Shown in pieces: positions 5,779-52,055 of a stretch of DNA of 64,000 bases. How positions within the stretch are numbered: the first letter of the stretch is position 1; every line of letters starts with the position of its first letter. The stretch comes from Hyphomicrobiales bacterium. GTDB taxonomy: Bacteria > Pseudomonadota > Alphaproteobacteria > Rhizobiales > Beijerinckiaceae. Where the stretch lies: contig QBLV01000014.1 in NCBI GenBank assembly GCA_003241815.1, forward strand, positions 19,453 through 83,452. The letters are read 5' to 3'. The notes beneath the pieces are model-generated. The model worked only from the letters and a program-made list of their open reading frames with translations. It did not search any database and was not told the origin of the DNA. A program made the position numbers and the translations under genes.

Positions 5779-7142
5779 TAGCGATCACCTTCGGAAAGAT
5801 TGACGGAAGAGCCGCCGCCATGCGCGTCGCCGGAACGGACGGCATGGGCCGTGGCCTGGACGGCATGGGTCATGCGTTGCGAGCGGCGCATCCGCTGGGC
5901 CCAGGCCGGCGGCCCGCCAGCGTTCGCGGACCCGGGGGACGCAGCTCCGTCACCGGCGCCATCGCCACCGGCCGAGCCCATGGTGGATGAGCCGCCCGTC
6001 GCTTCGAATGCGGCCTTACCGCCGGCGTTGAAGCTGGAGCGCATGCTCTCGGCGGCACGCGAAGCGGCGCGACGGAGCGGTGAGACAGCAGCACTACCAC
6101 CTGCGCGGGCGACTCCCCCGAGACCGGAAGCAACCCCGGCCGCACCAGATTGGCCGGCTGCGCCGAGGCTGTAAGCGGTAGAGGCGCCGCCTGCGACGGC
6201 TGCGCCGCCGCGAGCGGCCGCGGCCGCACCGCCGGCCAGAGCCACGCCACCGGATGCAGCGGCGCCGACGACGCCAGCGCCTGCCGCGACCATTCCGCCT
6301 GCGGCGAGGCCGGTTCCGACCGCGGCGCCGGCGCTGAGCTGGGGACCGCCGGAGACGATGCCGCTGGCGATGCCGGGGCCGAAAATGCCGAGCCCGAGTA
6401 GCGACAGCGCGGCGAGCACGATCGCCATGGCCTCGTCGATCGTCGGGTTCTGGCCGCCGAAGCCGGACGTGAACTCGGAGAAAAGTGTCGAACCGATGCC
6501 GATGATGACGGCGAGCACGAGAACCTTGATGCCGGACGAGATGACGTTGCCGAGCACGCGCTCCGCCATGAAGGCGGACTTGCCGAAGAGGCCGAAGGGG
6601 ATCAGCACGAAACCGGCGAGCGTCGTCAGCTTGAATTCGATGAGCGTGACGAAGAGCTGGATGGCGAGGATGAAGAAGGCGAGCAGGACCAGCGCCCAGG
6701 CAAGGAACATGCAGGCGATCTGGATGAAGTTCTCGAAAAACGACCAGTAGCCCATCAGGCTGGAGATGGAATCGAGCAGCGGTCGGCCGGCGTCGAGGCC
6801 CGTCTGCGCAACTTTTCCGGGGCGCATGAGATCAGCGGTCGAGAAGCCGGTGCCACTCGCCTTCAGGCCGAGGCCGGCGAAGCTCTCGAAAACGATCCGG
6901 GCGAGGTTGTTCCAGTTGCCGATGATGTAGGCGAAGACGCCGACGAACAGGGTCTTCTTGACCAGCCGCGCCATGATGTCGTCGTCGGCGCCCCAGCTCC
7001 AGAACAGCGCCGCGAGCGTCACGTCGATGACGATCAGCGTCGTGGCGATGAAGGCGACTTCGCCGCTGAGCAGGCCGAACCCGCTGTCGATGTAGCGGGT
7101 GAAGACCTCGAGGAAGTGGTCGATGACGCCGGTGCCGCCCAT
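5778..7142 (-). CDS. trbL: Conjugal transfer protein TrbL (VirB6 family)
   Basis: Polytopic membrane protein starting at MGGTGVIDHFLEVFTRYIDSGF, with a long Gly/Ala-rich C-terminal tail as is usual for TrbL. The 5' extension in the ORF track (to 7322) is Arg/Pro-rich and overlaps the upstream gene, so the internal ATG is preferred. Confidence 0.85.
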   Translation of the reverse strand: MGGTGVIDHFLEVFTRYIDSGFGLLSGEVAFIATTLIVIDVTLAALFWSWGADDDIMARLVKKTLFVGVFAYIIGNWNNLARIVFESFAGLGLKASGTGFSTADLMRPGKVAQTGLDAGRPLLDSISSLMGYWSFFENFIQIACMFLAWALVLLAFFILAIQLFVTLIEFKLTTLAGFVLIPFGLFGKSAFMAERVLGNVISSGIKVLVLAVIIGIGSTLFSEFTSGFGGQNPTIDEAMAIVLAALSLLGLGIFGPGIASGIVSGGPQLSAGAAVGTGLAAGGMVAAGAGVVGAAASGGVALAGGAAAAARGGAAVAGGASTAYSLGAAGQSGAAGVASGLGGVARAGGSAAVSPLRRAASRAAESMRSSFNAGGKAAFEATGGSSTMGSAGGDGAGDGAASPGSANAGGPPAWAQRMRRSQRMTHAVQATAHAVRSGDAHGGGSSVNLSEGDR

Positions 7143-11061: not shown

Positions 11062-11393
11062 CAGACGAGCGCTCCGCCGCCGAACGAGAAGAACGACAGG
11101 AAGAAGCTGGACGCGGCGAAGGCGATCGAAAGACCGAAGACGATCTGGATCAGCTTGCGCGCGCCGCCCGACGTGTCGCCAAAGGCGAGTGTCAGGCCGG
11201 TGATGATGATGATCATCACCGCGATGATCTTGGCGACCGGCCCCTCGATGGATTCGAGGATGGATTGCAGCGGAGCTTCCCAGGGCATCGACGAACCGGA
11301 CGCGTGGGCGGCGGGCGCGAGCGCCAGCGTGAGGAAGGTGACGGACACGGCCGTTGCGATGTGGCGGCGGATGCGCAGGGCATGCTTGATCAT
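11061..11393 (-). CDS. trbC: Conjugal transfer pilin-like protein TrbC (VirB2 family)
   Basis: 110 aa from [31 protein letters not shown], with a signal peptide and two hydrophobic helices. ATGA overlap with the trbB stop. The longer ORF-track version (to 11804) is an Arg-rich artefact inside trbB. Confidence 0.8.
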   Translation of the reverse strand: MIKHALRIRRHIATAVSVTFLTLALAPAAHASGSSMPWEAPLQSILESIEGPVAKIIAVMIIIITGLTLAFGDTSGGARKLIQIVFGLSIAFAASSFFLSFFSFGGGALV

Positions 11394-12373
11394 GACGGGT
11401 CTCCTGTGAGGGGCTGGATTGCGGGAGTGACGCGGTAGTCGCCGTCGGGGCCGAGGCCCTCGATGCGGGCGAGTTCGGCCAGGCGGCGCGATGCGCCGCG
11501 GCCCGAGAGAACGGCGACGTAATCGATCGTCTCGGCGATCAGCGCGCGCGGGACGGTGACGACGGCTTCTTGGATGAGCTGCTCCATGCGGCGCAGCGCG
11601 CCGATCGCGGTCCCCGCATGGATGGTTCCGACGCCGCCGGGATGGCCGGTGCCCCAGGCCTTCAGCAGATCGAGAGCCTCGGCGCCGCGCACTTCGCCGA
11701 TCGGGATGCGGTCGGGGCGCAGGCGAAGCGAGGAGCGAACAAGATCGGAGAGCGAGGCGACGCCGTCCTTGGTCCGCATGGCGACCAGATTGGGCGCCGC
11801 GCACTGCAGCTCGCGGGTGTCTTCTATCAGGACGACGCGGTCCGAGGTCTTGGACACTTCGGCCAGCAATGCGTTGGTGAGAGTTGTCTTGCCTGTGGAG
11901 GTGCCGCCGGCGACGAGGATGTTGCGTCGGTCGGCGACGGCCTGGCGCAACGTCTCGGCCTGGCCCGCGGCCATGATCCCAGCGGCGACATAATCGTCGA
12001 GCGTGAAGACAGCGACGGCGGGTTTGCGGATCGCAAAGGCCGGCGCTGAGACGACGGGAGGCAGCAGCCCCTCGAACCGCTCTCCCGTCTCGGGCAACTC
12101 GGCCGAAACCCGCGGGGCGCCGGGATGCACTTCAGCGCCGACGTGGTGGGCGACCAGGCGGATGATACGCTCGCCATCGGATGGCGACAGCAGTTCGCCC
12201 GTGTCAGAAAGCCCCTCGGAAAGCCGGTCGATCCAGAGCCGGCCATCGGGGTTGAGCATCACCTCGACGATCGCGGGGTCTTCCAGATACCGGGCGATGG
12301 CGGGGCCGAGGGCGGTGCGCAGCATGCGCGCGCCGCGAAGGATCGCCTCCGATTTCTGGTGATTGGCCGCCAC
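11390..12373 (-). CDS. trbB: Conjugal transfer ATPase TrbB (VirB11 family)
   Basis: 327 aa with Walker [10 protein letters not shown] and the VirB11/PulE-like motif [17 protein letters not shown] start. Confidence 0.9.
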
Positions 12374-12599
12374 GTCGTCCCCGTTCTCTTGCGGGTCCGC
12401 GATGCGCGGCCCTGGATCGGGGACGAGTAGAAGAGTCAGAAATCATGGCCTGACAACAACCGTTATGTGGTCGTCGTACTCTGGCGTACAAAGACAGGCG
12501 AACGGCGGAACGATGAGTTACTTGCCGCCCGAGCCGGACATCCTACCGGCCTGGGCGGGAGGACTATTCCGAGTCGCGGGTGATCGCGGAGGGCATGCC

Positions 12600-13502
12600 T
12601 CAGATCTTCATCGTCTCTGCAAGGAAGTCGACAAACGCGCGTGAAGCTGGCTTTGATGCACGACCGGCGGGGAGAACGGCGTGGACATCGACCATTCCCA
12701 TTTCCCAATCGGCCAGAACGCGGACGAGGCTGCCGTGCTGCAGTTCCGGAGAGCATCCCCAGGTCGATGTCGACGCGATCCCGAGGCCAGCCACGGCGGC
12801 GGTGATGGCTGCTTCATTGACCGAGATGTTGAGAGAGGCGTCGAGACGAACGGAAACAGACTTCCCATGCGAGCGGAAGACCCAGCCATCCGGCCGCATG
12901 CCCGAGGGGCCGAGGATGACCGAATGTGAAGAGAGATCGGCTGGCTTTCTGGGCGCGCCCGCTCGCTCAAGATAGGTGGGAGACGCCACTAGCATCCGCG
13001 GAGAAGTCCCGAGCTTTCTGGCCATCATGCCGGAATCTTCAAGGACGCCAAATCGGAGAGCAACGTCGACGGCCTCGTTGATAAGATCTTGGCGGCGATC
13101 AACAAGCACGAGATCTATTCGTAGCGCTGGATGGGTCCGCATAAACGCGGGTAGCCGCGGAATGAGTTCGCGCATCGCGAAGCTGGTGGTCGCTCCCACG
13201 CGCAGCACACCTCGAAGCTCGCCGTTTCCGCGTATCTCGTGCTCAGCTTCCTCGAGGACCGTCAGTACAGGTTCCACACGAGCCAGATATTGAGCTCCCG
13301 CCTCCGTGAGAGTTACGGCGCGGGTCGAGCGGGTCAGCAGCGTAACCCCGACCTCCTTTTCCAGCGTCGCAATGATGCGGGAGACGGAGGGTTGCGACAG
13401 GCCCACTTCGCGCGCCGCGGCGCCGAAGCTCCCGGTACGAGCGACGCGGCCGAGGAGATATAGCGCGCCCAGCCTATCAGTCATTCGAAATCCGGATTTC
13501 AT
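12600..13502 (-). CDS. LysR-family transcriptional regulator (cargo)
   Basis: 300 aa with HTH GSFGAAAREVGLSQPSVSRIIATLEKEVGVTLLTRSTR. Divergent from the MAPEG/WrbA genes. Confidence 0.9.
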   Translation of the reverse strand: MKSGFRMTDRLGALYLLGRVARTGSFGAAAREVGLSQPSVSRIIATLEKEVGVTLLTRSTRAVTLTEAGAQYLARVEPVLTVLEEAEHEIRGNGELRGVLRVGATTSFAMRELIPRLPAFMRTHPALRIDLVLVDRRQDLINEAVDVALRFGVLEDSGMMARKLGTSPRMLVASPTYLERAGAPRKPADLSSHSVILGPSGMRPDGWVFRSHGKSVSVRLDASLNISVNEAAITAAVAGLGIASTSTWGCSPELQHGSLVRVLADWEMGMVDVHAVLPAGRASKPASRAFVDFLAETMKI

Positions 13503-13581
13503 CTAGTTGTCTGAGCAGGCTACCCAACGAAATCCAAATGATCAATCATCCGGCGCACGATCTGCAAGTTTTAGTCAATAG

Positions 13582-13989
13582 ATGGAGATGTCGTTGGAAG
13601 CGCAGTCCCTAATTTTCGCAGGTATTCTCATCTGGGTTTCGGTCCTTGTGCAGCATGTGAACAACATGAAGACGCGGGGCGCGCAGTTTCTGATGAGCGA
13701 TCGGTCGTCTCCTCTTTCCGAGGACGGACTGACTGGTCGAGCCACACGCGCGTTGCGTAACAACATCGAGTCCGTCGCGATGTACGTGCCGATCGCCGCG
13801 GTCGCGGTCGCCATGCAGGTGTCGACGCCCGTCACCTATTGGTCGGCGCTCACCTGGATCGTCGTCCGGACGACCTTCAGTCTCGGCTATTGGCTCAAGA
13901 TCAATATGCTGCGCTCGCTCTCATGGTTGGTGGGCATGATCGCCATCGCCGCGTTCGCAGTGTCGCTGCTTCAGCAGGCCGCCGCCTGA
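13582..13989 (+). CDS. MAPEG-family membrane protein
   Basis: 135-aa, four-helix membrane protein with an R..N..E-type motif ([15 protein letters not shown]) resembling MAPEG. Confidence 0.65.
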
Positions 13990-14047
13990 ACTGACGCGGC
14001 CCGATTTTCCATCCCCCATAACCACCATCGATCACGGAGAGCGTGTG

Positions 14048-14650
14048 ATGCCGAAGATTCTCGTCCTATACTATTCCAGCTACGGGCACATCGAGCAGAT
14101 GGCCGAGTCCGTTGCTGAAGGCGCGCGCGAAGGCGGTGCCGAGGCAATCGTCAAGCGGGTGCCGGAGATCGTGCCAATCGACGTGGCCACAGCTCACGGC
14201 TTCAAGCTCGATCAGGCGGCTCCGGTCGCCGTGCCGGACGAACTGGCCGATTATGATGGGATCGTCTTCGGGATTCCGACGAGATTCGGAGGGATGGCCG
14301 CGCAGATGCGGAACTTCCTCGATCAGACCGGGGGCCTTTGGCATACCGGAAAGCTGATCGGAAAGGTCGCTTCGATCTTCACCTCATCGGCGACGCTTCA
14401 CGGCGGTCAGGAGGCGACGATCTTGACGAGCATTCCCACGCTCCTTCACCACGGTATGATCTTCGTCGGCCTGCCTTACAGCAACACGGACTTGATGCAG
14501 CTTGACGAGGTGAGCGGCGGAACGCCCTACGGCGCCAGCACGCTGTCCGGGACCGACAACAAACGCCAACCGAGCGCTCGCGAGCTCGGTCTCGCCAGCG
14601 CGCAAGGCAAGTTCGTGGCGGACGTCGCGCGTCGGCAAAGCGCGGCATGA
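14048..14650 (+). CDS. wrbA: NAD(P)H:quinone oxidoreductase WrbA (flavodoxin-like)
   Basis: [26 protein letters not shown]... and [21 protein letters not shown] are classic WrbA motifs. Confidence 0.9.
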
Positions 14651-14721
14651 TATTCGGCCCGGCGCGACGGCCAGCGCGTAGGCGCCATCAACGCCGGGCA
14701 TTCGACCAATCGCCGCCTCAT

Positions 14722-16194
14722 CTACACACGGCGGCGCTGGCAGATATCATAGTGCTGCGCCCATGGACGCACGCGCTCGAAGGCCGCACAAGCTCCCATC
14801 AGTCTCGCGTCGTCCAGACGGCGGCCGATGAGTTGCAGGCCGACAGGCAGTCCACCAACGAGGCCAGCGGGAAGTGATGCCGCCGGATTGCCTGTGAGAT
14901 TGGTGAGGTAAGTTAGGCACCAGCCGATCAGCGGATCGACTTCGACCTCGTCGATACGGTCAGGGCCCAAGGTCTCGCCGTGCGGTCCATTTTCCACGGG
15001 CAAACAGGCAACGGTCGGGCAAGCGATGATATCGACGCTCAGGAGCGCCCGCTGCAATCCGTCGAACGCCGCAGTGCGCGTAAGCTGATCTTGGCGGAGG
15101 TCGAGCTCCGTCAGCGCATTGGCGCGATCGATCCACATCCAAATCTGCTCGGGGAGCTCGGCCCCGTGATCGCGGGCGAGATCCAGTCCGTTGCGCTTGA
15201 AGCGCTCGATCGCACCGGCCATTCGCATGCCGACGAGGCGGCACCAAAGCTCTGTGAGGGCTCGATGGGACGGAAGTTGCACTTCGATCGGAACGATCTC
15301 CGCCCCGAGCGTAGCGAGCGCGCTTGCCGCATCATGGACATGCTCGGCGATCTCGCGGTTGACTGGATAGATACCCAGGTCAGGCGTGAAGCCGATCCTG
15401 ACGCCTGCCATTGAGCGAGATTTCGCGCCCGGCAAATCGATGTCGGCGGGCAGGCTGAACAACTCAGCCGGATCGAAGGCCATGAGCGTCTGCAAGGCGA
15501 GAGCGCCGTCCTCGACGGTGCGGGTGATCGCGCCGGTATAGGCGAAATTGGTGAGTTCAAAAGCGTTCTGCTGGGCCGCCGCGCTCGGGACTCGGCCGTA
15601 CGACGGTTGGAAGCCGAAGGTATTGCACCAGGCTGAAGGAATCCTGATCGAGCCCCCACCGTCGGTGGCTCCACCGATCGGCACCATTCCATCGGCCACT
15701 GCGGCCGCGCTGCCCCCGGACGATCCCCCGCTGTTGCGGGCGGGATCAAACGGATTACGCGTCGGGCCGTGCACGGGGTTGTCGCAGGTGCCGCGGAAGC
15801 CGAAAACCGGGCTGTTGGTCGCACCGACCACGATCGCGCCGGCCTGCTCCATCTTCGTCGGGAAATAGGACGCCGACTTTTGCGGCAGAGCCTGGAGGGC
15901 GCGGATGCCGCCGAGGGTCGAGGGCCAGCCGGGATAGCTGTTGAAGAGATCCTTCATCGCGACAGGTACGCCGGCGAGAGGTCCGACGTCTTCACCCCTG
16001 GCGATGCGTTCCTCAAGGCGTTTGGCGGCGGCCAGGGCACCTTCGGGATCGACGTGGACAAAGGCGTTGAGGGAGGGGTTGCGTGTCTCGATGCGATCAA
16101 GCGCCGCGCGGACGCTTTCTGTCGGGGAGAGATCCTTGGCGCGCACACGTCGCCCAATCTCTGATGCACTTAATGTTTCGAGCGTATCCGGCAT
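14722..16194 (-). CDS. Amidase (amidase-signature family)
   Basis: 490 aa with the AS-family Gly/Ser-rich signature GGSSGGSAAAVA and a conserved K...S-S context. Confidence 0.9.
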   Translation of the reverse strand: MPDTLETLSASEIGRRVRAKDLSPTESVRAALDRIETRNPSLNAFVHVDPEGALAAAKRLEERIARGEDVGPLAGVPVAMKDLFNSYPGWPSTLGGIRALQALPQKSASYFPTKMEQAGAIVVGATNSPVFGFRGTCDNPVHGPTRNPFDPARNSGGSSGGSAAAVADGMVPIGGATDGGGSIRIPSAWCNTFGFQPSYGRVPSAAAQQNAFELTNFAYTGAITRTVEDGALALQTLMAFDPAELFSLPADIDLPGAKSRSMAGVRIGFTPDLGIYPVNREIAEHVHDAASALATLGAEIVPIEVQLPSHRALTELWCRLVGMRMAGAIERFKRNGLDLARDHGAELPEQIWMWIDRANALTELDLRQDQLTRTAAFDGLQRALLSVDIIACPTVACLPVENGPHGETLGPDRIDEVEVDPLIGWCLTYLTNLTGNPAASLPAGLVGGLPVGLQLIGRRLDDARLMGACAAFERVRPWAQHYDICQRRRV

Positions 16195-16352
16195 GGGTAG
16201 TCCTCATGGATAGAGGTTGATCTCAGGGTGGCATGGCTGTCGCGGTGTATGAGGTATGGTAATGTACAGTACCAGACGTATTTGAGCGAACTGCTCTTGG
16301 TCAAGAGGTGCTCCGATGCATGTCGGTCGCAGAAAGGGCTTAGACCACGGCG

Positions 16353-16787
16353 TCAGTCAGTGCTCGGCGGCCCGTCGATCTCTTCGGATATTTCTTGGCG
16401 GAGCTTGGGTCCGTTCGCGAGCCTGCGGCCAAGCGCCGTGACGAACGCCTCGTAGCGTTCGCCGGCTTTCGCGCGCGCTGCCTGGGCGGCAGGTTCCGGC
16501 AGCGCCGGAGTTGTGCTGAGCCAGAAGCGCACGAAGATAGCCAGTGTCTCGACCGCGATCCCGAGGTCGCGCTCCATCCGGCTAAGGCGTCGATCGACCA
16601 GGTCGAGACGTTTCGTGGTTGCCGCTTCCTGCCGTTCGGCGGCATCCGGCGAAAGGAAGGAGGCGATGCCGGCTTCCGCGATCAACGACAGTGAGTGCCC
16701 GCCTCGGGCGGCATGAGCGGCAAGTGCCCGCATGACGTCAGGTTCGAGATAGACTGAGAGCCGTTGCTTCTTGGGCGCTTTCGCCAT
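16353..16787 (-). CDS. Ribbon-helix-helix (CopG-like) protein of the transfer region
   Basis: Start at MAKAPKKQRLSVYLEPDVMRALAAHAARGGHSLSLIAEAGI (RHH motif), located just after traG. An alternative upstream start at 16814 is possible. Confidence 0.7.
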   Translation of the reverse strand: MAKAPKKQRLSVYLEPDVMRALAAHAARGGHSLSLIAEAGIASFLSPDAAERQEAATTKRLDLVDRRLSRMERDLGIAVETLAIFVRFWLSTTPALPEPAAQAARAKAGERYEAFVTALGRRLANGPKLRQEISEEIDGPPSTD

Positions 16788-16797
16788 CCCTGCCTCC

Positions 16798-18786
16798 CTA
16801 GAGCTCAATGCCATCGCCCGGATCGAGCGAGGCTTGGCGGGCGACCTGGCGCATGGTCTGGTTCATCCGGCTGAGGCGCGCGGAATCCTCATCGGCGTCA
16901 TCTCGAGGATCGATCTCGAACTCGTTTTCGATCGGCGCCTTTCGCTCGGCCGGCGTCCCTCGACTGAGTTCAGGCTGGTGCCGGCGCTCGGAGTCCGTGG
17001 TGTCCTCCTCTTCGGAAGCGGGATCTCCGTTCGTCGCCGTCGACAAGGTCGGCCTGGCTGGAAGGGGCAGCGTGCTCCAGTCGTCAGGTCGGGCCGTGGT
17101 CGGCTTGGCGGCGTTCGGCGGCATCAGGATGCGCTCCTGGAACCGGCGATCTTCATAGTATCGCGCCTTCTTCGCGCGGATCGGCGGCGTCCCGGCTACC
17201 ATGACGATCTCATCCGTTGGAGGAAGCTGCATGATCTCGCCGGGTGTCATAAGCTGCCGCGCCGTCTCCGAGCGCGACACCATCATGTGGCCCAGCCAGG
17301 GCGACAGGCGATGTCCGGCGTAGTTCTTCATGGCTCGCATCTCGGTCGCTGTGCCGAGGGCGTCGGACACACGCTTGGCCGTGCGCTCGTCATTGGTGGC
17401 GAAGCTGACGCGCACATGGCAGTTGTCGAGGATCGAGTTGTTCGGTCCGTAGGCCTTCTCGATCTGGTTCAGCGACTGCGCGATGAGGAACGCTTTCAGC
17501 CCATACCCGGCCATGAAGGCGAGAGCGCTTTCGAAGAAGTCGAGACGGCCAAGCGCCGGAAATTCATCAAGCATAAGGAGCAAGCGGTGGCGATTGCCCC
17601 TCGCCTGCAGATCCTCAGTTAACCGTCGCCCGACCTGATTGAGGATCAGACGGATGAGCGGCTTGGTGCGGTTGATGTCTGAGGGTGGGACGACGAGGTA
17701 GAGAGTCGTCGGATGCTTGCCTCCGACAATGTCGGCGATCCGCCAGTCGCAGCGCCTTGTGACCTCGGCGACGACGGGATCGCGATAGAGACCTAGGAAC
17801 GACATGGCGGTCGAAAGCACCCCCGACCGTTCGTTGTCGGATTTGTTCAGTAGCTCGCGGGCGGCGCTCGCGATCACGGGATGCGGGCCCGCCTCGCCCA
17901 GGTGAGCTGTCTTCATCATTGCAGCGAGCGTCGATTCGATCGGCCGCTTCGGATCGGAGAGGAAGGCGGCGACGCCGGCCAGGGTCTTGTCGGCCTCGGC
18001 GTAGAGGACGTGCAGGATCGCGCCGACCAGCAGCGCGTGACTGGTCTTTTCCCAGTGGTTCCTCTTCTCCAGCGAGCCTTCCGGGTCGACCAGGATGTCG
18101 GCGATGTTCTGAACGTCGCGGACCTCCCACTCGCCGCGGCGCACCTCGAGCAGCGGATTGTAAGCGGCCGACTTCGCATTTGTCGGACCGAAGAGGAGCA
18201 CGCGGCCATGGCGAGCGCGATAGCCGGCTGTGAGCGTCCAGTTCTCGCCCTTGATGTCGTGAACGATCGCGGAGCCTGGCCAGGTCAGGAGCGACGGAAC
18301 GACGAGGCCCACGCCCTTGCCGGAACGCGTCGGCGCGAAGCACAGCACATGCTCGGGGCCGTCATGTCGAAGATAGTCGCGCTCGTGTTTGCCGAGCACG
18401 ACGCCATCCGGACCGAGCAGGCCCGCAGCCTTCACCTCTTCCGGCCGCGCCCAGCGGGCCGAGCCATAGGTCTCGACGTTTTTCGCTTCGCGTGCCCGCC
18501 ACACCGACATGCCGATCGCGACGGCGATGGAGATGAAGCCACCCGACGCGGCGATATAGGCGCCCTCGACGAAGATCGGCGGCGCATAGGCGTCGTAGAA
18601 ATACCACCACCAGAAGAAGGCGGGCGGATAGTAGATCGGCCAGCCCGCCAGTTCGAACCAGGGCAGTCCGAGCTGAGGTTGGAAGCCGAGACGATAGGCC
18701 GTCCATTGTGTCGCGCCCCAGGTCGTCATCAACACGATCAGGAAGACGGTGAGGATCTGACCCCAGAGGATTTTCGTCGCCGACAT
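16798..18786 (-). CDS. traG: Type IV coupling protein TraG (VirD4 family)
   Basis: 662 aa with N-terminal TM helices, Walker A-like FAPTRSGKGVGLVVP and the conserved LLMLDEFPALG motif. Confidence 0.95.
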   Translation of the reverse strand: MSATKILWGQILTVFLIVLMTTWGATQWTAYRLGFQPQLGLPWFELAGWPIYYPPAFFWWWYFYDAYAPPIFVEGAYIAASGGFISIAVAIGMSVWRAREAKNVETYGSARWARPEEVKAAGLLGPDGVVLGKHERDYLRHDGPEHVLCFAPTRSGKGVGLVVPSLLTWPGSAIVHDIKGENWTLTAGYRARHGRVLLFGPTNAKSAAYNPLLEVRRGEWEVRDVQNIADILVDPEGSLEKRNHWEKTSHALLVGAILHVLYAEADKTLAGVAAFLSDPKRPIESTLAAMMKTAHLGEAGPHPVIASAARELLNKSDNERSGVLSTAMSFLGLYRDPVVAEVTRRCDWRIADIVGGKHPTTLYLVVPPSDINRTKPLIRLILNQVGRRLTEDLQARGNRHRLLLMLDEFPALGRLDFFESALAFMAGYGLKAFLIAQSLNQIEKAYGPNNSILDNCHVRVSFATNDERTAKRVSDALGTATEMRAMKNYAGHRLSPWLGHMMVSRSETARQLMTPGEIMQLPPTDEIVMVAGTPPIRAKKARYYEDRRFQERILMPPNAAKPTTARPDDWSTLPLPARPTLSTATNGDPASEEEDTTDSERRHQPELSRGTPAERKAPIENEFEIDPRDDADEDSARLSRMNQTMRQVARQASLDPGDGIEL

Positions 18787-24113: not shown

Positions 24114-25001
24114 TCACAGCTTATCCCCAGGGCGAGTTGTCGATCGGCGACGGCGGCGCGGGATGCCGAGCGCGTCGGGATCGGTCGGCACAAAGGACAG
24201 GATTTCCGGACCGCCGAGGCACTGCTCGATGGTCAGCCGGTAGCCGGGCAGCGGTTGGCGGCGAACGATGTCGCGCAGGTCGTAGGCGAAGTGCTTGAGC
24301 GGCGAGAGGCTGCCGGACTTGGCGTGGAGGTGCGGAAAATCGAAGCTCCAGCCGAACTCCTGTTTGCCGCCATGCTTGCGCACGAGGCGATAGAGCCAGC
24401 GCTCCAGCCCGCCCGTCAGACCGAAATAGTTGCGGTCGATGGTAAGCACGAGCGCGTCGTCGAGCACCGCGCCGTAGAACCAGTCGGGGACGATCAGCTC
24501 GAGGCCGAGCGGCCGGCCGCGATGGTCGGCGCGCTCCTTCCATTCGTTGATCCAGGAGAAGCGGTGCATCCGCCGTTCGGTCGGCTGGCGGATCGAGGTC
24601 GCCACCGTGGTCGATTGAAGGCGGTCGAGTGCGGCCTTCAGACGGTCGTAGTCGCGAAGCGACACGCCGCGACCGATGAAGTTGAGGATTTCGTACGGGG
24701 TTGTCGCCATCAGCCGCGACGGCCGCAGACCGACGTCGCGCGCCTCGACGATTTGCGAGGCAGCCCAGATCAGGACGTCGGCGTCCCAGATTGTGGCCAT
24801 GCCGTGCTCGGGCACGGCTTCGACGCGGATCTTCACCGAGCCGGCCTTGAAGTCGATCGGCGCGAGGCGCTTCGACTTCGCGAGCGAGAAGAAGGGGTAG
24901 GCCATGAGGTCCTGCGCATCGCGCGGCGCGAGATCGCCGGGCAGCGCCCGGAACAGATCGAGCTGCGCGCGCTCATCGTGATGGTTGTGGCGAGACAACA
25001 C
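24114..25001 (-). CDS. repA: Replication initiator protein A (RepA family)
   Basis: 295 aa with DLFRALPGDLAPRDAQDLMAYPFFSLAKSKR..., characteristic of the replication initiator A family found in ICEs and plasmids. Confidence 0.85.
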   Translation of the reverse strand: MLSRHNHHDERAQLDLFRALPGDLAPRDAQDLMAYPFFSLAKSKRLAPIDFKAGSVKIRVEAVPEHGMATIWDADVLIWAASQIVEARDVGLRPSRLMATTPYEILNFIGRGVSLRDYDRLKAALDRLQSTTVATSIRQPTERRMHRFSWINEWKERADHRGRPLGLELIVPDWFYGAVLDDALVLTIDRNYFGLTGGLERWLYRLVRKHGGKQEFGWSFDFPHLHAKSGSLSPLKHFAYDLRDIVRRQPLPGYRLTIEQCLGGPEILSFVPTDPDALGIPRRRRRSTTRPGDKL

Positions 25002-25012
25002 GGCCGGTTGCC

Positions 25013-25294
25013 TCAGCGTGGGAAGCGGCCGGCAGCGGCGGGCGAAGCTGCCTGGCGCTTGGCCGGCAAAACGGTGCCGCCGCGCGGATCGGAAGTAGAG
25101 GTGACGAGACCGCGATCCGCCCAGGCCTGGAGGTCGTCGACGGAATAGACCACGCGACCGCCGAGCTTCCGATACGTCGGACCGGTGCCGTAAGTGCGAT
25201 GCTTTTCGAGGGTGCGCTCTGAAAGACCGAGAAAGCGGGCGGCTTCCTGGGTTCTCAAGTATCGTGTCGGTAGATTGGCGGCGTTTTCGGCCAT
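25013..25294 (-). CDS. Helix-turn-helix DNA-binding protein, excisionase/AlpA-like
   Basis: 93 aa: YLRTQEAARFLGLSERTLEKHRTYGTGPTYRKLGGRVVYSVDDLQAWA is an MerR/excisionase-type winged HTH. Confidence 0.8.
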   Translation of the reverse strand: MAENAANLPTRYLRTQEAARFLGLSERTLEKHRTYGTGPTYRKLGGRVVYSVDDLQAWADRGLVTSTSDPRGGTVLPAKRQAASPAAAGRFPR

Positions 25295-25420
25295 GATAGG
25301 ACCTCCGTGGTCTCGCGGGCGGCCGCTGAAAGGGAGCGGCGGGTTGCGAGCACGGTGGCGAGGCGTCGGCGCCTGCGACAGAAACGAAGTTAGATAGTTA
25401 TTTTCGACACCAAGGCCGCT

Positions 25421-26035
25421 TCAGCGAGAGCGTCTGGGGCGACGGAGAATGTTGCGGTATCCGCCGCGCACGAATGCCATGCCGTCCCTGGCGAGCCGGA
25501 TCGTGGTTTCGCGAATAGGGCTTTCGATCCACGTCTTTGCGTCGTGCTTGATGTTGGGAAAGAGCTGTTCCGCAATCTGCCGGTAAGTCGCCCCTAGCTC
25601 GCGCGCGTCAACGGCGCGCAACATCTGGCGCGCGCGTCCGCGCCTCTGCCGTGTAATGCGCGGATCGGGCGGAACTCGTTTGCCGAACATCGCATGCCAA
25701 AGTCGTTCGATAGCGGTGAGGCGGTCTGGCGTCATTTCGTCGAAGATGACAAATGCACCAAGAGGGCGCGTGTCTGGCGCATCCGCTATGGCGACGTCGT
25801 AGAGCTCGCCGTGCAGAGTGAGGCGAAGCACGGTCTCATCAAGCTCGATAATGGAGTGCGCGTGAAGCGTCTCAGCGCTAACGCGGAGGCTTCCTGCAGG
25901 GCTTGGCCCGGCGATGAACGGAAGCGTCGCGGGGTCTATTTCCGGGGTCCAGAAGACCGGCTGAATAAGCGCCGAATGCTGAGGATCTACGACGAAATCG
26001 CAACCCCCATTGTTCGGCGAATTCGCGGGCGACAT
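25421..26035 (-). CDS. DUF2285-domain segment of an FseA-like transfer activator (downstream frame)
   Basis: Sequence ...ALIQPVFWTPEIDP... and C-terminal ATYRQIAEQLF...W...TTIRLARDG..FVRGGYRNIL. It overlaps the DUF6499 ORF in the +1 frame. Confidence 0.8.
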   Translation of the reverse strand: MSPANSPNNGGCDFVVDPQHSALIQPVFWTPEIDPATLPFIAGPSPAGSLRVSAETLHAHSIIELDETVLRLTLHGELYDVAIADAPDTRPLGAFVIFDEMTPDRLTAIERLWHAMFGKRVPPDPRITRQRRGRARQMLRAVDARELGATYRQIAEQLFPNIKHDAKTWIESPIRETTIRLARDGMAFVRGGYRNILRRPRRSR

Positions 26036-26186
26036 CCTCTGTCAACCGCCCGATAGCGACCAACTCCCGATACGACTTTCTGTAATCGGGATTTCGGCGC
26101 AGGAACTCCCAGGCAAGATCGCCCGGAGTCAATTTGTCGATATAGTCATAGGCGGCATCAGACCGCCAACTCTCATCCTCGGACAT
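25878..26186 (-). CDS. DUF6499-domain segment of an FseA-like transfer activator (upstream frame); the tail after WGLRF is probably not translated
   Basis: MSEDESWRSDAAYDYIDKLTPGDLAWEFLRRNPDYRKSYREL...EQWGLRF, followed by an Arg/Ser-rich nonsense tail. Confidence 0.75.
   Translation of the reverse strand: MSEDESWRSDAAYDYIDKLTPGDLAWEFLRRNPDYRKSYRELVAIGRLTEDVAREFAEQWGLRFRRRSSAFGAYSAGLLDPGNRPRDASVHRRAKPCRKPPR
25990..26000 (-). promoter_or_regulatory. Candidate +1 programmed ribosomal frameshift site (CGA UUU C GUC) joining the DUF6499 and DUF2285 frames
   Basis: Minus-strand reading: tgg ggg ttg cga ttt c gtc gta gat cct gives ..WGLRF then VVDPQ.. after skipping one C. tRNA-Phe could re-pair from UUU to UUC. 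Confidence 0.5.
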
Positions 26187-26304
26187 CCTCCGCGACCTCC
26201 GCGCACTGTTTTACAACGCGAGTTATGCGGCGGATACGATTCCCGGTTGAATGGATGGCGGGAAGAACCGAGTCGCCATTACGTGATGCGGATTGTGCAT
26301 CACC

Positions 26305-26649
26305 TCAGTGCAAGCGGCCTTGTAGAAGTTGGCAAAAGCCGCTGGTCGTCATCCATTTCGCGCGATCGAGATGGTTCGTGTAGATGCGCAGAGCGCGTTC
26401 AGGATCCGCTTTCGCGTCGAGACCGAAGAGAACTTCGACGACTTCGCGCCAGTCTGCGCTTGCCGCGTCCGCGTCGAGCAGGCGGGCGTATAGTTTGAGG
26501 TGCGCCTCGTCATAGGCGGTCAGTGCGGCCCCCGCCGGCGGCTGATCCAGGAAATCGTCTTTCGTCACCACATCCCCCGGTCGCGAGATGTATCCAAATT
26601 GGAGGGAATTGTTAACCGTGATTTGATCGGAATGATGACGCAAGCCCAT
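26305..26649 (-). CDS. Small single-domain protein with a DUF2285-like C-terminus (QseM-like antiactivator candidate)
   Basis: 114 aa. The C-terminus DWREVVEVLFGLDAKADPERALRIYTNHLDRAKWMTTSGFCQLL parallels the W/LF/R/GY..LL pattern of the neighbouring DUF2285 domain. Confidence 0.55.
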   Translation of the reverse strand: MGLRHHSDQITVNNSLQFGYISRPGDVVTKDDFLDQPPAGAALTAYDEAHLKLYARLLDADAASADWREVVEVLFGLDAKADPERALRIYTNHLDRAKWMTTSGFCQLLQGRLH

Positions 26650-26688
26650 GATGCGAGAAGGCGTGGCGACGCCGCGACCTGTCGAACC

Positions 26689-26931
26689 TCAGGCTTCCTT
26701 CTTCCCCTCAACGAGCAGCACTCCCTTGCCCTGATCGGAACTCAGGAAGACGATGCCAGCGCGTTCGAACGCCCGTCTCACCTCATCACGCGTGCTCTCA
26801 TAGACCTCCAGGCCACTGGAGGATTCGAGGCGCTTGAGCGCGGTCAATGATACTCGGGCCTTGTCAGCGAGCGTCTCCTGCGTCCAGCCCAGCAACGCGC
26901 GTGCGGCCCGTGATTGTCGGGCGGTGATCAT
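26689..26931 (-). CDS. XRE-family helix-turn-helix regulator (QseC-like position)
   Basis: 80 aa: ARQSRAARALLGWTQETLADKARVSLTALKRLE is an XRE HTH. GGAGGTG lies 9 nt upstream of the ATG. Confidence 0.85.
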   Translation of the reverse strand: MITARQSRAARALLGWTQETLADKARVSLTALKRLESSSGLEVYESTRDEVRRAFERAGIVFLSSDQGKGVLLVEGKKEA

Positions 26932-26940
26932 GCATGATCA
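26925..26940. promoter_or_regulatory. Perfect 16-bp palindrome TGATCATGCATGATCA overlapping the XRE start codon
   Basis: Read directly from the sequence. It covers the ATG (26929-26931) and the spacer to the SD. Confidence 0.5.
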
Positions 26941-26974
26941 CCTCCCACTCGGACCTACGCGCACGCCAGAACTA

Positions 26975-26989
26975 CGACTATAATAGTCG
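26975..26989. promoter_or_regulatory. Operator-like palindrome CGACTAT-A-ATAGTCG (copy a), contains TATAAT
   Basis: Perfect 7+1+7 inverted repeat, 44 bp upstream of the XRE gene start. Related copies lie at 43061-43075 and 45788-45802. Confidence 0.55.
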
Positions 26990-27080
26990 CCCTCGCTCGG
27001 GCTGGCCACTCAAAAGCGGCTGTTTGATCAAGCGGGCGGCCAAAGCCGAGCTATCTGATTCGGTTTAGCGCGTTGGAAGA

Positions 27081-27112
27081 GCCCCGGCCCTTTCGGCCGG
27101 GGCCCTTCGGGC
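27081..27112 (-). terminator. GC-rich hairpin(s) just downstream of the DUF736 copy 2 stop
   Basis: GCCCCGGCC-CTTTC-GGCCGGGGC (9-bp stem) overlapping GGCCC-TTC-GGGCC. There is no strong U-tract, so the intrinsic terminator call is moderate. Confidence 0.45.
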
Positions 27113-44610: not shown

Positions 44611-45569
44611 GCCGCCCTCCGTTTAAGCTCGATATCGGCGGCCAGCGCTGGCGCGCCGGTCTCGGGCGCATGGGCGAGCAGCCAGTCGGCTGCCTTGCTC
44701 GCTTGGCTGGCGGCGCGGACGATAGCGCGATTGTCCTCGCGCAGAACCTCCAGCCACGATCCGAGATAGTCCGCGTGCCGTACGGTCGGAACGATGCCGA
44801 GCGAGGCGCAGCAGAAGGCCGCGTTCATCTCCGCGACCAGCTCCTCGAAGGCGTATTTCTTGGTGCCGAAGGCGCCGGTCATGTCGCGGCCGAGCCGGGA
44901 TGGATGGCCCGTTGCGTGGCCGAGCTCGTGCAGCGCCGTGCGGTGCCAGTTGATGGGATCGAAATAGGCCTGGGGCGGTGGGACTTGGACGTAATCGAGC
45001 GCCGGGACATAGAAGGCCCGGTTGCCGCCGATGCGGAAGTCGATGGCCGTCGAGCGGATCAGAGCCTCGACCTGCGGCTCGACCAGCCCCGGCGGCGGTG
45101 GCGGCGCGACCGTGGCGATATCGTCCGGCAGGTTCTCGCACTGCGCGGCGTTGAACACCGTGAAGCGCTTCAGGAACGGGATCGCCTGGGCGTCCTCGCC
45201 GGTCTCGCGGGCTCGGCGCTTCTCGCCGTCCGGCACGAAGCGATCGGCATAGACGACGGTCGTGCCGCGCTCGCCCTTGCGGACATTACCGCCGAGAGCC
45301 AGCGCCTGGCGGAAGGTGAGCCAGCTCTGGCCCGGGAAGCCGTGTTCGACGACGGCGCCCCATAGGATCAGGACATTGATCCCCGAATAGTGCCGGCTGG
45401 TGGCGGCGTTCCTCGGCATGGCGAGGGGCGCCTTCGCCGCGGCGGTCCCCCATGGCTGGACCCATGGGACGCGTCCGGCTTCCAGCTCGCCGATGATCTT
45501 GCCGGTGATTTCGTCGTAGAGGCTCGTCCGGTCCTGGCCGGCGCGAACGGTTGCGGTCTTTCTGGACAT
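44607..45569 (-). CDS. ardC: ArdC-like antirestriction protein (ssDNA-binding N-domain plus zincin metalloprotease)
   Basis: 320 aa with LYDEITGKIIGELEAGRVPWVQPW... (ArdC N-domain) and the HELGHATGH zinc-binding motif. Confidence 0.88.
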   Translation of the reverse strand: MSRKTATVRAGQDRTSLYDEITGKIIGELEAGRVPWVQPWGTAAAKAPLAMPRNAATSRHYSGINVLILWGAVVEHGFPGQSWLTFRQALALGGNVRKGERGTTVVYADRFVPDGEKRRARETGEDAQAIPFLKRFTVFNAAQCENLPDDIATVAPPPPPGLVEPQVEALIRSTAIDFRIGGNRAFYVPALDYVQVPPPQAYFDPINWHRTALHELGHATGHPSRLGRDMTGAFGTKKYAFEELVAEMNAAFCCASLGIVPTVRHADYLGSWLEVLREDNRAIVRAASQASKAADWLLAHAPETGAPALAADIELKRRAA

Positions 45570-45787
45570 CGCGGATCTCCGCGACGGGCGCCGGAAGCTC
45601 TCTCCCCGCTCTCAACCCGTCACGGCAAAGCCGGTCCGCACTCTCACTCTAGGGGGCGTTGCGGGGATCTCCCCGCAGAAGGGGTCGGCCGAGACGCGAG
45701 GCTCGGCCGCAGGGGAAGGCTTTCCCCTCATATCGACGTGATTAATTCGACTTTTAGCATCTCGATTACCACGCCGTTTACCGGCCA

Positions 45788-45802
45788 CGACTATTATAGT
45801 CG
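45788..45802. promoter_or_regulatory. Operator-like palindrome CGACTAT-T-ATAGTCG (copy c); reads TATAAT on the minus strand
   Basis: Perfect 7+1+7 inverted repeat, 219 bp upstream of the ardC start. Confidence 0.55.
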
Positions 45803-45821
45803 CACCTCTCGTATAAATGAG

Positions 45822-47741
45822 TTGTCAGGCGGGTGTTCGTTGCTGCGCATCCAGAATGAAATACTACGGATGATCGCAGACGGCGAACCGCTCGATGACA
45901 CAGCGCGGCAGATCTGCGTTCTCGTCGAGGCCGAACTGCCGGGCACGATCTGCTCGATCCTGGTCGTGGACCGCGCCGGACTGCTCCACCCGCTTGCGGC
46001 CCCGAGTCTCCCCGACGACTACTCCGAGGCTCTCGACGGAATGGTGATCGGCCCTGAGGTCGGCGCCTGTGGAACTGCGGCATATCTTCGGGAAGTCGTG
46101 ATTATCGAAGACATGACCGTTGATCCCCGTTGCGCGAAGTTTGCGTCGCGGATCGACGGCCTTGGCGTGACGGCATGTTGGTCGCTGCCGATCCTAAACG
46201 ATGAAAGGAACACGGTCGCAGTCCTCGGGCTCTATCACCGCGACAGGCATTACCCGGGTAAAGCTGAGCGCGAGCTCGCGGAAGCGTGCGTGGACCTCTG
46301 CGCCATCGCGCTCCGTCGCAACGAGCGGATCGCCGATCGGGAGCGTCGTGCGAACATCGACGCCCTGACGGGTCTTCCAAATCGATCTGCCTTCGAAACC
46401 GCCATGGCGAACATACCCTGCGACGAGATCGGATCGTGGGGACTGTTCATCCTGGACCTGGACAACCTCAAGGTCGTCAACGACACCTTCGGCCATCTCG
46501 CCGGCGACGCCCTGATACGCACCGCCGCAAGTCGGATCTCCCATGTGATGGCGCCTGACATCACCTTTCGGCTTGGCGGAGATGAGTTCGCGGTCATCAT
46601 GCAGTCGCCCGAGCTGCTGAGCGATCTCGACGCGGCGGCCGCGCGTATCTTCGCGGCGCTCGAACTGCCAGCGCCTTGCGAGGGCCACATGGTCGTCCCC
46701 CGCGCGACGATCGGGGGGGCGGTTCTCGCGCAAGGAGAGGCGACGGCGATCGCCGTGAGCGAAGCCGCCGATTTCGCGCTTTACCACGCGAAGGAGACCG
46801 GGCGCGGCGGTTTCGTCCGCTATTGGCCGGGCATCGGTAGCCGCATCACGCGGAGGCGGGATGCCATTCGAGATGTTGCGGGGGCGCTTAAGGACGATCG
46901 TATCGAGGCGCACTACCAGCCCGTGGTGCGCTTGGACACAGGCGAGATCATCGGCCTCGAGGCGCTTTGCAGAATGCGTACGGTCGATGGTGACTTGATC
47001 ACCGCGGCCGATTTCCATGAGGCGACGACGGACGCCCATGTCGCCGCAGAACTGACAGAACAGATGCTCGCGGCCGTAGCTGGAGATATCCGCCATTGGC
47101 TGGATAGTGGGATTCCGGTCCAGCACGTCGGCATCAACGTGTCGACGGCGGATTTCTACACTGGGAGCATCGGAAAGAAGTTCGAGAGCGCATTTGATCG
47201 CGCGGGTGTTTCGTTGAAGCACTTGGTGCTTGAGGTTAGCGAAGATGTGTATCTCGGACGGCGCGATCGCGTCGTCGCGAAGGAGATTGAATCCCTGCGC
47301 GCGGCTGGCGTCCTCGTCGCGCTCGATGATTTTGGGACGGGATACGCCTCTCTGACGCATCTGCTGAGTGTTCCCGTCGATATCATCAAGATTGATCAGA
47401 CCTTCGTCGCTCGCTTGTGGCCGGAGGATCCGAGCATGGTGATCGTCGAGGGTTTGATCGATATCGCCAGACGCCTCGATATTCGGGTTGTAGCCGAAGG
47501 TATTGAGACCGAGGTGCAGGCAAGCCAACTCTGGTCGATGGGCTGCCATCTCGGCCAAGGTTTCGCCTTTGCCAGGCCTGGAGACCGCGTGACGACGGAG
47601 CGGCTTCTGCGCCGGCACGCGCAGGGAATGGGTGGAACGGTTCCTCTCTATCCGGTTTCCCTACAGGCCCCCGCGAGCTCGAATGGCTCGGTGCCCGAAC
47701 AGAAGCTGGCGAGTCCACATCGTCGCGCATCTGTCGGCTAA
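45822..47741 (+). CDS. GAF-GGDEF-EAL signalling protein (diguanylate cyclase/phosphodiesterase)
   Basis: GAF-like N-terminus, GGDEF (FRLGGDEFAV), and EAL motifs (GLEALCRMR; DDFGTGYASL). Start uncertain: TTG 45822 or 45840, or ATG 45870. The ORF-track start at 45390 lies antisense within ardC and was rejected. Confidence 0.85.
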   Translation: MSGGCSLLRIQNEILRMIADGEPLDDTARQICVLVEAELPGTICSILVVDRAGLLHPLAAPSLPDDYSEALDGMVIGPEVGACGTAAYLREVVIIEDMTVDPRCAKFASRIDGLGVTACWSLPILNDERNTVAVLGLYHRDRHYPGKAERELAEACVDLCAIALRRNERIADRERRANIDALTGLPNRSAFETAMANIPCDEIGSWGLFILDLDNLKVVNDTFGHLAGDALIRTAASRISHVMAPDITFRLGGDEFAVIMQSPELLSDLDAAAARIFAALELPAPCEGHMVVPRATIGGAVLAQGEATAIAVSEAADFALYHAKETGRGGFVRYWPGIGSRITRRRDAIRDVAGALKDDRIEAHYQPVVRLDTGEIIGLEALCRMRTVDGDLITAADFHEATTDAHVAAELTEQMLAAVAGDIRHWLDSGIPVQHVGINVSTADFYTGSIGKKFESAFDRAGVSLKHLVLEVSEDVYLGRRDRVVAKEIESLRAAGVLVALDDFGTGYASLTHLLSVPVDIIKIDQTFVARLWPEDPSMVIVEGLIDIARRLDIRVVAEGIETEVQASQLWSMGCHLGQGFAFARPGDRVTTERLLRRHAQGMGGTVPLYPVSLQAPASSNGSVPEQKLASPHRRASVG

Positions 47742-47795
47742 TGATTGCCGCACGTGGCATGAGGTGTGGTTCTTCGCGAGCGCAGAGGCGTGGAC

Positions 47796-48209: not shown

Positions 48210-48227
48210 GTCAACCGGGGGCTGAAA

Positions 48228-48252
48228 CTGCCGGCGAGCGGGCCGCCGGCAG
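48228..48252. terminator. Hairpin between convergent genes; possible terminator, best for the minus-strand gene
   Basis: CTGCCGGCG-AGCGGGC-CGCCGGCAG (9-bp stem). The minus-strand side is followed by TTTCAG. Confidence 0.5.
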
Positions 48253-48272
48253 TGAAGTCAAATTCGGGCGGA

Positions 48273-48653: not shown

Positions 48654-48820
48654 GATGTGCTCCTACTGAGGTGGTGACCGTAGTGAGACAACGACGTCGC
48701 CGATTTATTCCGAGCGGCAGTAGCTTTTTCAGACAGCCAAGAAAATTCGAGGGGAATGGAATAAAGGAGAGGCTGTGCTGTCTACCGCTCCAATGCACTG
48801 AGCACGGAGCGACCATAGCA

Positions 48821-50688: not shown

Positions 50689-50706
50689 GCGGCGTAAGGA
50701 GGCGGC

Positions 50707-52010: not shown

Positions 52011-52055
52011 TCACGGCGCCTGACGGCACCGTTGAGTAGCGTGAGGTTTGCAGGC

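Follow-up and report, generated by a model that had tools for sequence, protein, structure and literature searches.

Two overlapping minus-strand open reading frames (ORFs) of the window, by which we mean the whole analysed stretch of 64,000 nucleotides, are, judged from the sequence, very probably a single gene, fseA. It would encode an FseA-type master activator of a conjugative element and be expressed by a +1 frameshift. This reading draws on the anatomy and conservation of the locus, on frame-specific selection, on single-ORF relatives that are colinear with the fusion, on the fold, and on what the partner genes encode. The parts of the gene are as follows.

25878..26186, minus strand: ORF A (msi172-like), 102 aa, TAG stop, PF20109 (formerly DUF6499)
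25421..26035, minus strand: ORF B in its annotated extent, 204 aa, PF10074 (formerly DUF2285)
25994..26009, minus strand: probable +1 programmed frameshift site UGG GGG UUG CGA UUU C, a conserved motif (PMC4755241, PMC10359603)
25421..25993, minus strand: +1-frame part of fseA (msi171-like), codons 65-254 and the stop, encoding a middle beta domain and an extended-turn HTH domain (DUF2285/PF10074)

The ORFs overlap by 158 nt (25878..26035), with ORF B in the +1 frame relative to ORF A. The translation of ORF A runs MSEDESWRSDAAYDYIDKLTPGDLAWEFLRRNPDY...AREFAEQWGLRF, and then RRRSSAFGAYSAG... up to the TAG. It contains the AWEFLRRN motif at residues 25-32, and its Pfam match to PF20109 (82 bits, residues 7-65) ends where WGLRF ends. 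Only codons 1-64 (26186..25995) belong to FseA; the 0-frame tail past the junction consists of 38 codons, is Arg/Ser-rich, and has a pI of 11.9. ORF B, which matches PF10074 with 105 bits, reads MSPANSPNNGGCDF-VVDPQHSALIQPVFWTPEIDP..., with NGGCDF directly before VVDPQHSALIQPVFWTPEIDP, and its annotated start at 26035 appears to be an artefact of the open +1 frame. In the conceptual +1 fusion, both Pfam domains, PF20109 and PF10074, are present, and the DUF2285 region (fusion residues 148-254) has a pI of 11.7 and a net charge of +13. Neither of the two protein alignments of relatives shows any variation at R31, within AWEFLRRN, or at D193, within RAVDAR. These residues match the interdomain Arg-Asp pair R37/D210 of FseA, as assigned by motif position (PMC10359603) and by the RovC alignment. 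All features that define the FseA family and its recoding site at the sequence level appear to be present.

Read along the minus strand, the site consists of TGG (W60, 26009..26007), GGG (26006..26004), TTG (26003..26001), CGA (26000..25998) and TTT (F64, 25997..25995), followed by the skipped C (25994) and by GTC (V, 25993..25991). Its elements are a G-rich, Shine-Dalgarno (SD)-like UGGGGG, a 6-nt spacer, the slippery P-site codon UUU, and the skipped C. Several codons of the site are minor ones in the genes of the window (GGG, 14% of Gly; TTG, 7% of Leu; CGA, 9% of Arg; TTT, 18% of Phe codons). CGU, which occupies the A site in frame 0, makes up 10% of the Arg codons in the window's genes and is thus no more than moderately rare, so that there appears to be no obvious 'hungry codon' at this position, nor is there a stop. 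The stimulatory role of the SD-like GGGGG is uncertain, because it lies 6 nt from the slippery codon, compared to 3 nt in prfB. According to Jowsey et al. (PMC10359603), the element may instead stall ribosomes. An RNAalifold analysis of 29 diverse loci found no conserved stimulatory RNA structure around the shift site (-6.7 kcal/mol, covariation absent). The fused product is predicted to comprise 254 aa (roughly 28 kDa), with the junction peptide ...EQWGLRFVVDPQHSALIQPVFWTPEIDPATLPFIAGPSPAGSLR. The predicted tryptic peptide over the junction is FVVDPQHSALIQPVFWTPEIDPATLPFIAGPSPAGSLR, and a chymotryptic alternative spans ...WGLRF-VVDPQ...

The sequence-only reading had already assigned the DUF6499 and DUF2285 domains, which is borne out by the Pfam scores of 82 and 105 bits. 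It had also described an ORF A that passes from WGLRF into an Arg/Ser tail and a +1-frame ORF B with a 158-nt overlap, in agreement with the coordinates and translations, and its junction, CGA UUU C GUC, is indeed what is read at 26000..25991.

The frame offset is a property of the family and goes far beyond chance. A scan with one genome per species gave 63 loci, 62 of them with both halves. The loci are spread over numerous genera of alphaproteobacteria, among them Rhizobium, Brucella, Brevundimonas, Azospirillum, Methylobacterium and Sphingomonas. The +1 offset occurs at the identical codon in every one of the 62 two-half loci, which are 33.5-100% identical in the C-terminal part: the DUF6499 match ends at a nucleotide x and the DUF2285 match begins at x+2. 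Together with the window, these loci provide 63 sequences with 46 distinct 76-nt junctions, across which TGGGG and TTT-C are invariant. The codon preceding TTT varies (CGA, TCT, TGT, TAT, TGC), and so does the encoded amino acid. All 50 distinct sequences use TTT and have C as the skipped base, whereas both synonyms occur at two further invariant Phe positions of the gene (TTC 31 / TTT 19 and TTC 46 / TTT 4). The conservation of the site thus exceeds what the encoded amino acids demand. The C-terminal parts of two loci, L046 and L003, are truncated, and these loci have truly decayed further downstream.

The pattern of variation changes frame at the same point. Upstream of the junction, the entropies of the three codon positions in frame 0 are 0.41/0.26/1.02, with the wobble at position 3. 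Downstream, the most variable position is position 3 of the +1 frame, which is position 1 of frame 0 (0.90-0.95, compared to 0.46 and 0.43 for the others), so that the three-base periodicity shifts phase exactly at the junction. Because the wobble phase switches there, the 0-frame tail is not selected as a protein, and purifying selection appears to act in the +1 frame after the site. Without exception, the closest 120 proteins in a database of 5.8 billion sequences (54-98% identity) come from DUF2285-only ORFs, with lengths of 158-234 aa that mostly lie near 200. In each of the 16 of these proteins that were aligned, the artificial N-terminus shows the +1 reading of AAUGGGGGUUGCGAUUUC, as NGGCDF or with slight variation.

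Further support for a single protein comes from relatives that are not split. Exhaustive HMMER searching and alignment identified many single-ORF relatives of 244-270 aa that are 27-34% identical to the fusion and match its residues ~4-252 in one stretch. Colinearity over the junction is free of gaps, with WGLRF-L-ADP or WGLRF-P-VDP in single-ORF relatives and WGLRF-V-VDP here, followed by VFW. The sequence-only reading had held that single-ORF proteins continue directly from WGLRF and had proposed an alignment with fused DUF6499-DUF2285 homologues. The gap-free x-xDP...VFW of the relatives agrees with the former, and in the alignment the junction is colinear at WGLRF. The fused product is also predicted to fold as one protein. 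An AlphaFold2 model of the fusion, built with 50 such relatives, has a pLDDT of 92 (95-97 over residues 51-80) and a pTM of 0.90. Its sole significant fold match in the PDB, according to Foldseek, is the single-chain RovC (6xz5; 244 columns, E 2.7e-7, TM 0.56/0.65), with a sequence match on both sides of the junction. The model has the three domains seen in RovC and in the published FseA model.

Viewed in isolation, the split would look exactly the same if one extra base had entered a single ORF through a sequencing or assembly error, or if a recent 1-nt indel had turned the gene into a pseudogene, and a few relatives (L046, L003) are indeed decayed further downstream. The probability of this explanation is nevertheless negligible. 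Contigs from four independent runs, representing different organisms and metagenomes, have 0 gaps over 25300..26300; one of the four (X17) is flagged as probably RNA ('RNA?'). A contig of Sphingobium chlorophenolicum NBRC 16172 is 99.7% identical over 6,663 bp, again with no gap. Moreover, every one of the 62 loci with both halves, down to ~34% identity, shares the offset, and purifying selection acts in the +1 frame past the site. The indel-free independent assemblies and the identical offset in 62 loci together rule out a sequencing error, one of the two explanations that the sequence-only reading had named as able to undo it. Polymerase slippage on the T and G runs, which would yield a minority of in-frame mRNAs, appeals to the short homopolymers of the site (GGGGG, TTT) and to the database fragment P0122, whose QWGCDFAADP looks like the product of a run that is one G short. 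However, runs of about 7-9 or more identical bases are normally required for transcriptional slippage to be productive (reviewed in PMC5009743), and the X17 contig covers 25933..26300 without an indel, although contigs hide rare variants. Given such short runs and an RNA-derived contig free of indels, transcriptional slippage is unlikely, with a very slim chance of being correct. The invariant UUU followed by C fits tRNA re-pairing rather than polymerase slippage, and the work on R7A assigns the event to the ribosome.

A different possibility is that the DUF6499 protein of ORF A and an independently initiated DUF2285 protein from ORF B assemble into a non-covalent activator; separate polypeptides were the second explanation that the sequence-only reading had named as able to undo it. 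The window does have a +1-frame ATG at 26035. A complex in trans is physically conceivable, because the DUF6499 and DUF2285 domains touch in the FseA and RovC models and QseM, a DUF2285 domain alone, binds DUF6499 in trans (PMC10359603). Yet the start is not conserved: ATG, GTG and TTG are all missing from 11 of 43 distinct upstream contexts, ATG is present in only 12, and an SD-like motif in only 6. In the window itself, GAGG abuts the ATG without any spacer. Since neither start nor SD is conserved, independent initiation of ORF B is disfavoured. It would also leave the invariant UUU-C and the exact frame offset unexplained, and in R7A the fused protein has been detected and the fused gene is the active form (PMC4755241). 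We consider that two separate chains have a small chance of being the correct explanation, and prefer one recoded gene.

The genes around fseA are those expected of its regulatory partners. The neighbouring features, together with a candidate binding site, are the following.

25013..25294, minus strand: rdfS homologue (HTH_17 excisionase / recombination directionality factor), PF12728, 93 aa, adjoining fseA downstream
25382..25409, minus strand: candidate FseA box, TGTCGA (25409..25404), 16-nt spacer, TCGTTT (25387..25382)
26305..26649, minus strand: qseM homologue, a small DUF2285-only protein, 114 aa, acidic, net charge -4, pI 5.6, adjoining fseA upstream
26689..26931, minus strand: XRE/HTH_3 regulator, PF01381, directly upstream of qseM on the same strand

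The RdfS homologue matches the crystal structure of RdfS from ICEMlSymR7A (PDB 8DGL) with an E-value of 1.9e-11 over 66 aligned residues, with ~43% identity. Its gene is presumed to be the first of an FseA-activated operon, rdfS-repA-parA-DUF2840-traF... The QseM homologue matches the NMR structure of R7A QseM (PDB 7UQT; E 1.4e-16, residues 33-109, ~43% identical), and its score against PF10074, 21 bits, is below the cut-off. A direct BLASTP comparison of this small DUF2285 protein with FseA gave no significant match, and its identity as QseM therefore rests on the 7UQT match. [quoted passage not shown] The position of the XRE regulator is conserved in relatives (81-94% identity), and it is a possible counterpart of QseC, a protein described in PMC8789080. 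The gene order DUF736-XRE-qseM-fseA-rdfS-repA is kept in about 60 loci. In the region 24900..27100, the sole sigma-70-like match is at 27008..26980, upstream of the XRE gene. The consensus scan of this region gave no match 5' of fseA or rdfS, which is expected for an activator-dependent promoter and is uninformative.

The conjugation genes in the window encode TrbB/E/L/F/G/I, a TraG coupling protein, a MobA/VirD2-DUF3363 relaxase and a TraF S26 peptidase. Further genes of the element encode DUF2840, ParA, RepA (PF10134), a ParB-like protein, a Strawberry-notch-type helicase and DUF736. The element is a Tn4371-like (trb/traG/RepA/ParA) integrative and conjugative element (ICE), parts of which may lie outside the window. 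A scan of 41 ORFs, which covered part of the small ORFs, gave no Pfam match to LuxR or to an autoinducer synthase (LuxI), so that the upstream signal either differs from that of R7A or lies outside the window. A Gabija defence pair is located at 57728..61562. Near-identical sequence is carried by 20 public sequencing runs, in which 95% or more of the 31-letter words sampled from the 1-kb stretch of the locus are present. The locus would be the on/off switch of a conjugative element with cargo genes that is found nearly unchanged in many soil, water and sludge runs.

The published FseA box comprises two inverted hexamers, 15-16 bp apart (PMC10359603). The candidate box of the window ends 87 nt 5' of the rdfS-like ATG, a distance that is fixed across loci. 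Most relatives have a perfect inverted repeat, TGTCGA-N15/16-TCGACA, at the same distance, whereas the subgroup of the window has TGTCGA-N16-TCGTTT/C with a degenerate right half. Because the right half is TCGTTT and not TCGACA, the link between FseA and rdfS is less clean in the window than in most relatives. The half-site variant of the box co-varies with the variant of the FseA C-terminal helix; the two are physically linked. The leader of rdfS is predicted to form a hairpin and, possibly, an anti-SD pairing. A conserved structured leader was considered and discarded, with a covariation term of 0.02 and one compensatory pair in a region that is too conserved for covariation.

By comparison with the published mechanism and its conservation (PMC4755241, PMC10359603, PMC5009743), the gene would be expressed as follows. 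Ribosomes would read the DUF6499 frame as far as Phe64. In a minority of them, tRNA-Phe, which reads UUU by wobble in the P site, would re-pair on UUC in the +1 frame. These ribosomes would skip C25994 and continue into the middle domain and the DUF2285 DNA-binding domain to produce the 254-aa FseA, while non-slipping ribosomes would produce the 102-aa DUF6499 protein with its non-conserved basic tail. We infer slippage and its efficiency, binding of FseA to the box and antagonism by QseM. Full-length FseA would bind the inverted-hexamer box 5' of the rdfS homologue and activate the excision and transfer genes, and the adjacent QseM homologue would act as a second brake by sequestering the DUF6499 domain of FseA. 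In R7A, shifting accounts for 4-13% of translation events (PMC4755241), and the split gene reaches 0.8% of the promoter activation achieved by the fused gene. If the ICEMlSymR7A data can be transferred, a low shift efficiency would keep the activator scarce and conjugation low, and the site would throttle transfer.

The genes of the cassette differ in how well they are conserved. The median identity to the window is 63% for the C-terminal part of FseA and 75% for QseM, compared to 92% for RdfS and 95% for RepA. Divergence is far faster in FseA and QseM than in the neighbouring genes, and it is correlated between the two (Spearman 0.72). Two different variants can be present within single genomes or MAGs (L044/L059, L034/L060). 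It is tempting to imagine a compact, quorum-sensing-independent XRE-qseM-fseA-rdfS cassette in this clade of RepA/ParA-bearing Tn4371-like ICEs, in which FseA, QseM and the box half-site co-diversify to make co-resident elements orthogonal, and in which the abundant non-shifted DUF6499 protein is a decoy for its own QseM, with the frameshift setting the ratio of decoy to activator. Taken jointly, these propositions are doubtful. If they were true, the frameshift would tune the decoy:activator ratio rather than merely reduce the yield. The hints of regulatory orthogonality, as read from sequence comparison, are the only part of the present analysis that might exceed the literature.

The sequence-only reading had regarded the locus as an independent example of programmed frameshifting. 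This did not hold up, because the site is the same inherited UGGGGG...UUUC site of the FseA family (PMC4755241, PMC10359603). In a curated set of 4,709 FseA homologues, drawn from alpha-, beta- and gamma-proteobacteria, about 61% are divided at the conserved +1 site, and they are routinely misannotated (PMC10359603). The supplements of that paper contain no Sphingobium entries or species lists. The sequence-only reading therefore correctly recognised a recoding event that was already known, in a family member not characterised before. The locus adds nothing new on recoding mechanisms, as the frameshift, the site, its conservation and the regulatory logic were published in 2015-2023. For annotation, the locus should be described as one recoded CDS, the complement of the join of 25421..25993 and 25995..26186. 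Relatives in public databases are represented as ~200-aa DUF2285 proteins with spurious N-termini.

The closest known system, FseA (msi172-msi171) of Mesorhizobium japonicum/loti ICEMlSymR7A, was reportedly described by Ramsay et al. (2015, PNAS). The R7A system with its partners QseM and RdfS is the subject of PMC4755241, PMC10359603 and PMC11963761, and we compared it by its published description. Common to both are the DUF6499 + DUF2285 architecture with AWEFLRRN, the +1 site UGGGGG encoding WGL and then UUUC, the interdomain Arg/Asp pair, the QseM and RdfS homologues, and, as a candidate in the window, an inverted-hexamer box 5' of rdfS. The gene arrangements are different. In the window, XRE-qseM-fseA-rdfS-repA-parA-DUF2840-traF...relaxase-traG-trb are contiguous and co-directional. 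In R7A, in contrast, fseA belongs to the TraR-activated traI2 operon and converges with qseM, from which qseC diverges; rdfS is located elsewhere. The XRE gene of the window is not divergent from qseM, unlike the QseC gene in R7A. Likewise, fseA of the window follows qseM on the same strand, and R7A-type TraR/TraI control was not found among the 41 ORFs scanned. The distance from box to ATG is 87 nt in the window, compared to ~62-67 nt for the proximal hexamer in R7A. Finally, the element of the window is a RepA/ParA-bearing Tn4371-like ICE, whereas that of R7A is a symbiosis island.

RovC of Yersinia (PDB 6xz5) combines a DUF6499-like domain with DUF2285 in the same overall fold, and its sequence is similar in AWExLRRNP and in WG...DP...VFW. 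Unlike the protein discussed here, it is encoded by a single ORF without a frameshift, is only ~16% identical, regulates a chromosomal T6SS as an activator of its genes, and is hexameric. With regard to recoding, the site resembles that of prfB (RF2), where the P-site tRNA also slips +1 to a better or equal codon (CUU-U there, UUU-C here) and where an SD-like G-rich element is found upstream. In prfB, however, a 0-frame stop occupies the A site, the SD spacer is 3 nt long, and the shift is autoregulatory and highly efficient. The site discussed here has a sense codon (CGN) in the A site and a spacer of 6 nt, and the efficiency of the R7A homologue is low (4-13%).

In the module that extends from DUF736 to RepA, the conjugation activator FseA and the presumed antiactivator QseM evolve far more rapidly than the neighbouring proteins. 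Among the related alphaproteobacterial loci L002-L063, the median identity to the window is 63% for the C-terminal part of FseA and 75% for QseM, compared with 84% for the N-terminal part of FseA, 92% for the excisionase RdfS and 95% for RepA. Divergence of the C-terminal part of FseA is correlated with that of QseM in these loci (Spearman correlation 0.72). Two divergent variants can be present together: L044 and L059 come from a single MAG, and L034 and L060 are both from Azospirillum sp. B4.

The candidate FseA box, a pair of inverted hexamers, lies at 25382..25409 in the window and in the fseA-rdfS intergenic region of L002-L063. Its right half-site reads either TCGACA/CCGACA or TCGTTY/CCGTTC, and in the window and these loci the variant co-varies with the type of the FseA C-terminal helix, which is either of the WVGDPIREITIRLARDGMKLV type or of the W[VID]E[NS]P[VI]R...[AS][FY]V type. 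The co-variation is consistent with a co-evolving specificity of FseA for its box, a reading that is confounded by the physical linkage of the two elements.

The rdfS leader (25295..25381, (-) strand) and its counterparts in L002-L063 are extremely conserved. One element of the leader is a GC hairpin (CCGCCGCT-loop-AGCGGC), in which L063 carries a single compensatory change. In addition, CCACCGUG is predicted to pair with CACGGAGG, which would occlude the Shine-Dalgarno sequence of rdfS. Across the window and L002-L063 there is no covariation support for the structure, as the variation is too small. The leader might act as a translational brake, or as a site of RdfS autoregulation.

Several copies of fseA depart from the usual form. 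The part in the +1 frame, usually about 190 codons, is shortened to 141 codons in Phyllobacterium salinisoli (L046) and to 86 codons in Aurantimonas endophytica (L003), at ~6194..6700 of the locus. The frameshift site is intact in both, and both are probably decaying copies. P0122, a protein fragment of 118 aa from the representative library, reads ...FAEQWGCDFAADPRTSALIQPIFWTPQVDP, with the frames fused as if GGGGG were one G short. Past the fused stretch, its sequence diverges again. Either a natural in-frame variant or a homopolymer read error may account for P0122. Finally, the contig of S. chlorophenolicum NBRC 16172 (L001) is 99.7% identical to the window as far as 26086, and the terminal 143 nt of the contig (L001:1-143) do not align to window positions 26087 and above. 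As a result, the first 33 codons of the DUF6499 frame (ORF A) are missing from the L001 assembly. The mismatch is probably due to an assembly break or an insertion.

A cargo block (12400..16350) is inserted between traG/CopG-like (16353..18786) and trbB (11390..12373), and the stretch 45390..55478 lies outside the conjugation genes. The window also encodes a complete anti-phage defence pair.

13582..13989, (+): MAPEG protein, cargo block
14045..14650, (+): WrbA-like FMN reductase, cargo block
14722..16194, (-): amidase, cargo block
45390..47741: GAF-GGDEF-EAL protein, beyond the conjugation genes
50707..52010: ECF sigma factor and putative anti-sigma partner, beyond the conjugation genes
52056..55478, (-): DnaE2-like error-prone polymerase III alpha subunit, beyond the conjugation genes
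57728..61562, (+): Gabija pair (PADLOC), consisting of GajA (691 aa, OLD-like ATPase and TOPRIM, 955 bits) and the overlapping GajB (588 aa, UvrD-like helicase, 878 bits)

Neither a tRNA gene nor an integrase was identified within the 64-kb window, and therefore the ends of the ICE could not be placed.

Upstream of fseA, and on the same strand, lie two further genes.

26305..26931, (-): qseM homologue (QseM by PDB 7UQT, E 1.4e-16) and XRE regulator

The region has just one sigma-70-like match (27008..26980), and its position ahead of the XRE gene suggests that XRE, qseM and fseA form a single transcript. In ICEMlSymR7A, the Mesorhizobium element, qseM is oriented divergently from qseC and convergently with fseA, whereas in the window the XRE gene, qseM and fseA are co-directional.
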